DNA from: Escherichia coli
GTDB taxonomy: Bacteria > Pseudomonadota > Gammaproteobacteria > Enterobacterales > Enterobacteriaceae
Reading direction: 5' to 3' (one strand)
Length of the DNA stretch: 1,014 nucleotides
Assembly: GCF_003334765.1 (NCBI RefSeq)
Contig: NZ_QOWT01000090.1
Shown here piece after piece: positions 1-1,014 of the stretch; within the stretch, counting starts at the first letter, position 1; each line of letters opens with the position of its first letter. Position numbers and translations under genes: made by a program. The notes beneath the pieces are model-generated. The model did no database searches. It saw only the letters and a list, made by a program, of their open reading frames with translations, and had not been told where the DNA came from.

Positions 1-136
1 CAGCATCCTGCAGTGGCGCAATATACTCACTGAATTCCTGGATGTAGAACTGTGTGGTGACGGTCTTCCAGCCATTCGGCTCCTGCTGTATCGAAGCATA
101 CCAGGCTATTTCAATATCGCTATGCTGCGGCAGCAT
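1..136 (-). CDS. Partial CDS (start codon at 136-134, continues past window position 1): tail-fibre-assembly (Tfa)-like protein, N-terminal 45 codons
   Basis: Minus-strand translation from ATG (complement of 134-136) is MLPQHSDIEIAWYASIQQEPNGWKTVTTQFYIQEFSEYIAPLQDA, open to the window edge. An in-frame TAA (complement of 137-139) lies directly upstream, so the ORF cannot start earlier. A Shine-Dalgarno-like AAGGGG (complement of 141-146) sits 4 nt before the ATG. The segment EYIAPLQDA resembles the conserved ..EHIAPLQDA.. stretch of lambda-type Tfa proteins as I recall them. Unverified by search; only 45 codons are visible. Confidence 0.5.
   Translation of the reverse strand, partial: MLPQHSDIEIAWYASIQQEPNGWKTVTTQFYIQEFSEYIAPLQDA
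123..132. repeat. Left copy of 10-bp exact direct repeat TGCTGCGGCA, lying inside the first codons of the minus-strand Tfa-like gene
   Basis: Plus-strand 123-132 tgctgcggca is identical to 894-903. With one 3-nt indel (GCA unit) the match extends to 123-136 versus 894-904, which includes the start codon on the minus strand. Confidence 0.6.
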
Positions 137-192
137 TTAACCCCTTGTAATTCATCGCCATAATTGATTTAATTCACAAATAAAACTATAAC
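137..192. promoter_or_regulatory. AT-rich divergent intergenic region between the minus-strand Tfa-like gene and the plus-strand methyltransferase; candidate sigma70-type promoter for the methyltransferase
   Basis: 56 bp at about 27% GC (15/56, hand count) between two divergent start codons. Best plus-strand candidate: -35 TTGATT (164-169), 17-bp spacer, -10 TATAAC (187-192). A weaker alternative is -35 TTGTAA (145-150) with -10 TTTAAT (168-173). Hexamer matches in AT-rich DNA are weak evidence. Confidence 0.3.
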
Positions 193-861
193 ATGGTGAA
201 ATTAATGAAAAAAAACACAGATGATGGGGCTAAAATTTACACACCACTTACCCTAAAGCTTTATGACTGGTGGGTTTTGGGAGTATCAAATCGGCTTGCA
301 TGGGGATGTCCTACAAAGGAACACCTTCTTCCACACTTTCTGGAACATTTAGGTAACAACCATCTGGATATTGGTGTTGGAACTGGGTTTTACCTTACTC
401 ACGTACCTGAGAGTAGTCTGATATCTTTAATGGATTTGAACGAAGCTAGCCTGAACGCGGCATCTACAAGGGCTGGGGAATCAAAAATTAAACATAAAAT
501 TAGCCATGATGTTTTTGAACCTTATCCCGCGGCGTTACATGGTCAATTTGATTCCATTTCCATGTTTTACCTTCTTCACTGCCTGCCTGGAAATATATCT
601 ACAAAAAGCTGTGTAATACGCAATGCGGCGCAGGCCTTAACTGACGATGGAACTCTATACGGAGCCACAATTCTTGGCGATGGAGTTGTGCACAATAGCT
701 TCGGTCAAAAACTGATGCGCATTTACAATCAGAAAGGCATCTTTTCAAACACAAAAGATTCCGAAGAAGGCTTAACACATATACTCTCAGAGCATTTCGA
801 GAATGTTAAAACCAAGGTTCAAGGTACTGTAGTAATGTTTTCCGCTTCAGGGAAAAAATAG
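193..861 (+). CDS. Class I SAM-dependent methyltransferase (Rossmann fold), substrate unknown; alternative start at 205 gives 218 aa
   Basis: Single long ORF in the provided track (222 aa, stop TAG 859-861). Residue numbers count from Met at 193. Motif I LDIGVGTG at aa 58-65 (nt 364-387). Acidic post-I residue D81 in SLMDLNE. Motif II GQFDSISMFYLL at aa 117-128 (nt 541-576). Motif III-like LTDDGTLYGATIL at aa 149-161. N-terminal aromatic segment YDWWVLGVSNRLAW precedes motif I. No DPPY/NPPY or PC/ENV motifs. Confidence 0.85.
   Translation: MVKLMKKNTDDGAKIYTPLTLKLYDWWVLGVSNRLAWGCPTKEHLLPHFLEHLGNNHLDIGVGTGFYLTHVPESSLISLMDLNEASLNAASTRAGESKIKHKISHDVFEPYPAALHGQFDSISMFYLLHCLPGNISTKSCVIRNAAQALTDDGTLYGATILGDGVVHNSFGQKLMRIYNQKGIFSNTKDSEEGLTHILSEHFENVKTKVQGTVVMFSASGKK
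195..199 (+). promoter_or_regulatory. Shine-Dalgarno-like GGTGA serving the internal in-frame ATG at 205
   Basis: GGTGA matches the GGUGA portion of the extended anti-SD complement and lies 5 nt before ATG 205-207. No SD-like sequence precedes ATG 193-195 (upstream is caaataaaactataac). Confidence 0.35.
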
Positions 862-868
862 CATCCAA

Positions 869-901
869 CCGCAGCACGTTCTTGCTTAAGACGTGCTGCG
901 G
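869..901. terminator. Perfect 11-bp inverted repeat (stem 869-879 / 891-901, 11-nt loop 880-890) between convergent genes; candidate terminator, better oriented for the minus strand
   Basis: ccgcagcacgt (869-879) is the exact reverse complement of acgtgctgcgg (891-901), 8 of 11 pairs G:C. On the plus strand no T-tract follows (cataatccc). On the minus strand the stem is followed by ttggatgc then tattttt (complement of 853-868), a T-tract displaced by 8 nt. Non-canonical in both directions. Confidence 0.4.
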
Positions 902-903
902 CA
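894..903. repeat. Right copy of 10-bp exact direct repeat TGCTGCGGCA, overlapping the right arm of the hairpin and lying just beyond the stop of the minus-strand Tfa gene
   Basis: Plus-strand 894-903 tgctgcggca is identical to 123-132. On the minus strand it reads ATG CCG CAG CA (complement of 894-904), against ATG CTG CCG CAG CA at the left-hand gene start. Confidence 0.6.
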
Positions 904-915
904 TAATCCCAATGA

Positions 916-1014
916 TTACTCCCTGACAGGGTTCGTAGGCCACTCAATATCAGGTGCAGTTGATGTATCAACACGGTTCAGCAACACCCGATACTTTTTC
1001 CAGGCTTCCAGCAA
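916..1014 (-). CDS. Partial CDS (C-terminal 32 codons plus stop; N-terminus lies beyond window position 1014): tail fibre assembly protein (Tfa) family
   Basis: Minus-strand translation entering at 1014 is [32 protein letters not shown], ending at TAA (complement of 916-918). This closely matches the C-terminus of phage lambda-type Tfa proteins as I recall it (..[33 protein letters not shown]). Recalled from memory, not searched. Confidence 0.65.

Follow-up and report, generated by a model that had tools for sequence, protein, structure and literature searches.

On the evidence of sequence comparison, the hairpin at positions 869-901 is a native and conserved element of the region downstream of the tail fibre assembly gene (tfa) in lambdoid phages and prophages, as indicated by its membership in a hairpin family and by its independence from the neighbouring methyltransferase cargo gene. 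It is, in our view, an ordinary example of an element type already known. With a probability of roughly 0.65, we infer that this resident element acts as a weak two-way terminator or stabiliser of transcript 3' ends, and likewise as a joint for recombination. "The window" hereafter is the whole 1,014-nt stretch of Escherichia coli DNA that was analysed; numbers preceded by L denote fetched loci.

Layout of the locus

E. coli O121 RM8352 carries a 100% identical copy of the window in a DLP12-type prophage, at the end towards ompT. It comprises the following features.

1-137, minus strand: 5' part of a tfaX-like short open reading frame (ORF), which starts at 137
123-132, no strand: left copy of the 10-mer TGCTGCGGCA, the "duplicated gene start" of the first-pass annotation; chance-level similarity or microhomology
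137-164, plus strand: promoter-like site TTAACC-16-CATAAT upstream of the methyltransferase gene, a consensus match only
193-861, plus strand: cargo gene for a 222-aa class I SAM-dependent methyltransferase, ybcY homologue, phrog_2132
862-868, no strand: conserved flank CATCCAA (TTGGATG on the tfa strand), part of the conserved island
869-901, no strand: palindromic stem-loop of the CCGCAG...CTGCGG family of lambdoid phages and prophages, from repeat search, folding and homologues
902-915, minus strand: 14-nt spacer TCATTGGGATTATG from the tfa stop to the stem, type-A flank
916-1014, minus strand: 3' end of tfa, with its stop codon at 916-918, matching the Rfam "IS009" model

The methyltransferase gene is convergent with tfa and has a lower G+C content than its flanks; the promoter-like site upstream of it matches the consensus no better than chance would allow. 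The end of tfa at 916 is also the end of the late tail-fibre operon, in which stf is likewise on the minus strand. As the methyltransferase gene ends at 861 and the tfa stop codon lies at 916-918 on the opposite strand, the hairpin begins 7 nt and 14 nt past the respective stops. Its flank at 862-868 is also found in dinI-type contexts, in the form TTGG[A/C]TG, and the spacer TCATTGGGATTATG likewise stands before a second hairpin copy, after tfaX, in fuller loci.

Several observations concern the neighbouring sequences in their own right. Rfam family RF02111 ("IS009"), listed as a gene of the sRNA type, consists of 199 nt within the tfa coding region and gives full-score matches in every tfa locus examined (959-1014 and 1-113 of the window, minus strand; 2844-3042 of L016); it has the appearance of conserved coding sequence, not of an sRNA. 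The tfaX-like ORF (83-88 aa; 1-137 of the window, minus strand; 3883-4134 of L016) has a PHROG of its own, phrog_2341, and shows matches to tail fibre assembly families at its C-terminus. Leftward of about position 45 it is a diverged second copy of the tfa 3' region, and it may encode a functional short protein, not a mere fragment.

RefSeq places a 45-aa "hypothetical protein" (WP_001309429.1, named "nucleocapsid protein" in K-12-type records) at 806-943 on the minus strand, spanning the hairpin and antisense to the methyltransferase 3' end. We rejected this ORF as a gene: its ATG (905-903) is missing in A-tract variants and its downstream frame changes with each context, and the ORF is probably spurious. 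In E. coli CT01 (L004, at about 3002) and in phage Ayreon (L010, at about 2115), the methyltransferase gene is cleanly deleted internally, with 166-826 of the window missing; both deletion alleles retain the two ends of the gene and a hairpin with perfect arms.

Structure of the hairpin

Repeat search and folding delimit a 33-nt palindromic stem-loop of 11+3 bp with one bulge and a tetraloop. The first-pass annotation had described a perfect 11-bp hairpin between convergent genes, and the arms at 869-879 (CCGCAGCACGT) and 891-901 (ACGTGCTGCGG), of 11 nt each, are indeed 100% complementary, with 8 G:C pairs. They are 11 nt apart, and within this spacing 881-883 pair with 888-890 and T880 is bulged, which brings the total to 14 bp. 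Folding of 865-905 as RNA on both strands, as had been proposed, gave -23.0 kcal/mol for the plus strand and -24.4 kcal/mol for the minus strand (z about -5.8), and none of 200 shuffles was as stable. By chance, 1014 nt would be expected to contain 0.004 perfect 11-bp inverted repeats whose loop is at most 20 nt, which bears out the earlier view that the palindrome is not accidental; the hairpin is also conserved in homologous loci.

A family of hairpins downstream of tfa

Other copies, for which a search had been suggested, are numerous; they are GC-rich palindromes of about 33-34 nt, in which CCGCAG and CTGCGG enclose an inner stem-loop. Members of the family occur in 5205 of 5426 complete E. 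coli genomes, at 12,776 places, with a median of 2 and a maximum of 7 per genome. Among 80 viral loci fetched via Tfa, taken together with the loci fetched earlier, 17 of the 28 distinct tfa-downstream sequences carry a member. A pattern scan of genome contigs yielded, among the matches listed, true members only in Escherichia (E. albertii and the E. coli clade), these matches being mostly chance palindromes of high-G+C genomes. The family alignment (A1) has a mean column identity of 90%. Placement 11-15 nt past the tfa stop is the rule in the family, and the 14 nt found in the window conform to it. Within the family, the allele of the window forms the most stable stem (-21.9 vs -15 to -17 kcal/mol).

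Phage lambda (NC_001416, L096) possesses two copies. The first, CCGCAGAAACGTTGTATGAAATAACGTTCTGCGG at 22573-22606, lies 15 nt past the tfa stop and faces ea47, and the second, at 24162-24195, lies between ea47 and ea31; at neither place does the NC_001416 record annotate a feature. Like the hairpin of the window, the lambda tfa/ea47 palindrome stands between convergent genes and has an outer stem of CCGCAG/CTGCGG. A bulged A and, in the inner stem, an A:U pair where the hairpin of the window has C:G set the lambda copies apart, and their stability is lower (-17.7 kcal/mol); moreover, the neighbouring cargo is ea47 in lambda, whereas it is the methyltransferase gene in the window.

The hairpin is not tied to any one neighbour. 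Variants are found without the methyltransferase gene in lambda, HK630, mEp460, Qin and Chlobot, and locus L015 has the identical 33-mer with a dinI-type flank and likewise without this gene. BLAST homology of lambda and HK630 to the window runs from 867 rightwards. The hairpin is found together with at least six kinds of 5' flank and at least six of 3' flank, and around its copies homology stops within 0-7 nt of the stem.

Many copies have a conserved flank of about 65 nt upstream on the anti-tfa strand (cgtaaaatc..ggctggaaatcattcaata..cactatcgaaa..caccagccaa; for example 2441-2555 of L094, 1866-1975 of L007 and 2440-2540 of L005). It is found after dinI, at the Qin prophage end beside ydfJ' and at the second lambda copy. 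In mEp460 and Qin the hairpin is then followed by a T-run, so that the unit of flank and hairpin resembles a 3'UTR or an sRNA; a search of Rfam returned no match to this unit.

Proposed role and conservation as DNA

A hairpin that is real, not accidental, conserved and located at two convergent 3' ends makes a role as terminator, insulator or recombination site reasonable. It is placed where the late tail-fibre operon meets convergent accessory genes, which are the methyltransferase gene here and ea47, dinI or others elsewhere. An RNA copy of either strand would fold into a stable stem-loop, marking the 3' end of the transcript, protecting it and causing weak termination. Termination at the allele of the window would probably be leaky, since neither strand has a U-tract adjacent to the stem, with Rho completing it further downstream. 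The same element, a short conserved stretch flanked by variable modules, may also be a joint where recombination replaces one cargo module by another.

It is possible, if unlikely, that the hairpin has no function as RNA and is a conserved DNA island that persists and spreads via homologous recombination among phages and prophages. This would agree with the conservation of the sequence itself, and not merely of its pairing: at 90% column identity there is little covariation, with a compensatory change in only one of 11 pairs and six pairs invariant. Mosaic breakpoints close to the hairpin and the hybrid hairpins of ACN001 and Turner point in the same direction. Because covariation is minimal, the conservation may reflect recent common ancestry and not selection on structure; the members are so similar that covariation neither proves nor refutes such selection.

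Against a mere DNA island stands the constant position of the hairpin right after stop codons, as does the presence of unrelated, non-homologous strong hairpins at the same spot after tfa in other phages (L065, L085, L061). Furthermore, a T-run adjoins the hairpin on the anti-tfa strand in mEp460, Qin, ACN001/Turner and L069, which gives these variants the full anatomy of a canonical terminator; in L069 and L086 an A-tract on one side of the hairpin is matched by a T-rich tail on the other. The CssrB RNA, which is taken to end at the hairpin (see below), likewise argues for a role in RNA.

Transcription termination

The reading as a weak two-way terminator or 3'-end stabiliser has to be distinguished from that of a canonical intrinsic terminator working efficiently for the methyltransferase gene, for tfa or for both, which we consider distinctly improbable. 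The stem is GC-rich and the loop short (dG about -23 kcal/mol), as is typical of intrinsic terminators, and both the rank of this stem as the most stable of its family and its start close behind two stop codons would suit an efficient terminator. A U-tract directly after the stem is absent on both strands, with T at three of eight positions on the minus strand and at two of eight on the plus strand, and the T-run at 854-859 is offset from the stem by 9 nt. We therefore consider the allele of the window weak as a terminator. Polymerase modified by Q or N would in any case disregard a hairpin of this kind. The earlier proposal that the hairpin, with an offset T-tract, could terminate the minus-strand Tfa gene is retained in a weak form only. 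The same distinction applies in comparison with bidirectional intrinsic terminators, with which the hairpin shares a GC-rich palindromic stem common to two convergent transcription units and from which it differs in the lack of a U-tract on either strand and in the K-12 data below, which indicate read-through followed by Rho termination.

An automatic terminator scan of the window returned no match; this result is uninformative, since the same scan also missed the T-run variants of the hairpin that served as controls. Tails and stem energies were scored by script in place of the scan. No relevant description of a lambda terminator after tfa emerged from a literature search.

In K-12 MG1655, the corresponding hairpin at 582113-582145 (814-846 of L093) has one mismatch, a G-to-A change in one arm (ACATGCTGCGG), so that the tfa strand has a C:A mismatch and the strand of ybcY, a pseudogene in this strain, a G:U wobble. 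Adams et al. 2021 (PMC7815308, supplementary file 2) report a minus-strand region of Rho termination at 582001, about 110 nt beyond the hairpin and antisense to tfaD, and antisense RNA of tfaD is increased in K-12 under bicyclomycin, i.e., upon inhibition of Rho (PMC5909445). The position of the Rho region downstream and the bicyclomycin-raised antisense RNA suggest that K-12 transcripts in the methyltransferase direction pass the hairpin, which argues against an efficient terminator. So does the curated set of K-12 Term-seq 3' ends (PMC7815308, supplementary file 1), in which none falls at 58209x-58216x, with the reservations that expression of DLP12 is poor and that the K-12 allele is mismatched. 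Read-through on both strands together with a lack of conservation of the palindrome in homologous loci had been named at the outset as evidence that would count against a functional hairpin; read-through is indicated for K-12 in the methyltransferase direction, and the palindrome is conserved in homologous loci.

Relation to the small RNA CssrB

The Rfam CssrB model (RF02799) ends in 32 nt (positions 149-180 of 180) that are identical in sequence to 901-870 of the window on the minus strand. In Shigella flexneri, CssrB (chromosome-encoded sRNA B) gives a Northern band of about 180 nt, and its 3' end was assigned by prediction of a rho-independent terminator (PMC3071730). Both the shared sequence and the Northern band would be compatible with the hairpin of the window being the 3' end of a CssrB-like small RNA transcribed from the tfa strand. 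We nevertheless consider this very unlikely: only the hairpin matches, model positions 1-148 having no counterpart in the window or in any fetched locus, and the score of 36.2 bits lies below the gathering score of 76, so that the window does not contain a CssrB gene. In addition, no promoter-like site was found on the minus strand in 902-1014.

Recombination and exchange of cargo genes

In ACN001 and Turner the methyltransferase gene is joined to the Qin-type hairpin and its flank, which shows that a crossover took place at the hairpin element. A joint for ordinary homologous recombination, as in our preferred reading, is to be kept apart from a sequence-specific site, either folded DNA of the attC type or duplex, for a cargo-swapping recombinase or a DNA-binding protein. 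The conserved arm sequence, the single extrahelical base that recurs in most family copies and a layout that resembles arrays of genes plus hairpins could be taken as hints of such a site. No dedicated recombinase is consistently adjacent in the fetched loci, and ordinary homologous recombination also explains the breakpoints, so that we hold a specific site to be highly improbable. We give hardly more credence to the broader idea that the CCGCAG...CTGCGG palindromes are dedicated joints for cassette exchange (hot spots or sites of enzymes acting on folded DNA) and not mere terminators; if it were true, lambdoid phages would swap the cargo genes behind their tail-fibre operon through these palindromes.

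A separate observation is AAAACCAAGGTT at 809-820, inside the methyltransferase 3' end, which we take to resemble the core of the hix/cix/gix sites of DNA invertases. A pin invertase lies nearby in Turner and ACN001, and a comparable core was sought near pinQ in L094 and not found there; the likeness is probably due to chance.

Morons of lambdoid phages, as Juhala et al. in 2000 and Hendrix and colleagues are said to have described them, consist of a promoter, a gene and a terminator. The window resembles this architecture in its gene of lower G+C content, the promoter-like site upstream, the hairpin after the stop and the location beside tail-fibre genes. It differs in that the hairpin is a resident element downstream of tfa that is common to other cargos, and is not the cargo's own.

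Origin of the hairpin

Since the stem-loop is widespread after tfa in lambda-like phages and prophages, lambda included, insertion of the methyltransferase gene did not create it. The different cargo contexts cease to be homologous at 861/862, i.e., at the methyltransferase stop codon. This boundary lies to the left of both arms, which contradicts the claim of the first-pass annotation that a cassette carried in an inverted copy of the junction. Its description of the hairpin as half native and half cassette-derived fails likewise, as both arms travel as one unit in loci without the methyltransferase gene (L015, lambda).

The duplication of a gene start that had been proposed together with this origin holds in part: the 10-nt direct repeat TGCTGCGGCA does exist, at 123-132 and 894-903 (repeat search), but local alignment returns just these 10 nt and the pair is near chance level, one or more 10-mer pairs turning up in 35% of shuffled windows. 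In the majority allele (37 of 40 loci) the 10-mer is present at 123-132; L004, L009 and L010, as minority alleles, have TGCCACGGCA at this place, and their hairpin arms are still perfect. That a cassette inserted at a gene start, duplicated about 10 bp, brought an inverted junction copy and left the hairpin as a by-product is thus extremely improbable, as the presence of TGCTGCGGCA on both sides of the methyltransferase gene in most loci and the low G+C content at 151-250 are outweighed by the co-occurrence of the arms without this gene, by the cargo boundary, by a repeat that cannot be extended and by perfect arms in alleles that lack it.

A larger duplication was found in fuller relatives (L016, others, and E. 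albertii L132), where a direct repeat of about 225 nt brackets the methyltransferase module. Each copy takes in the last ca. 63 tfa codons, the 14-nt spacer and also the hairpin; the two share about 90% identity and lie 1049 bp from each other (2930-3132 and 3960-4182 of L016; about 1-45 and 862-1014 of the window). The genome from which the window comes has a truncated left copy (L001, at about 5915).

Implications

The present result is mostly a correction, in that the hairpin belongs to lambda-like phages as a resident element of a boundary and is not the scar of a cassette insertion. The stem alone, without a U-tract, gives no ground for annotating an efficient terminator. As the 3' end of CssrB is this very hairpin, the family also explains part of one Rfam entry. 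For the biology of E. coli prophages, the hairpin marks a place at which accessory genes are swapped.
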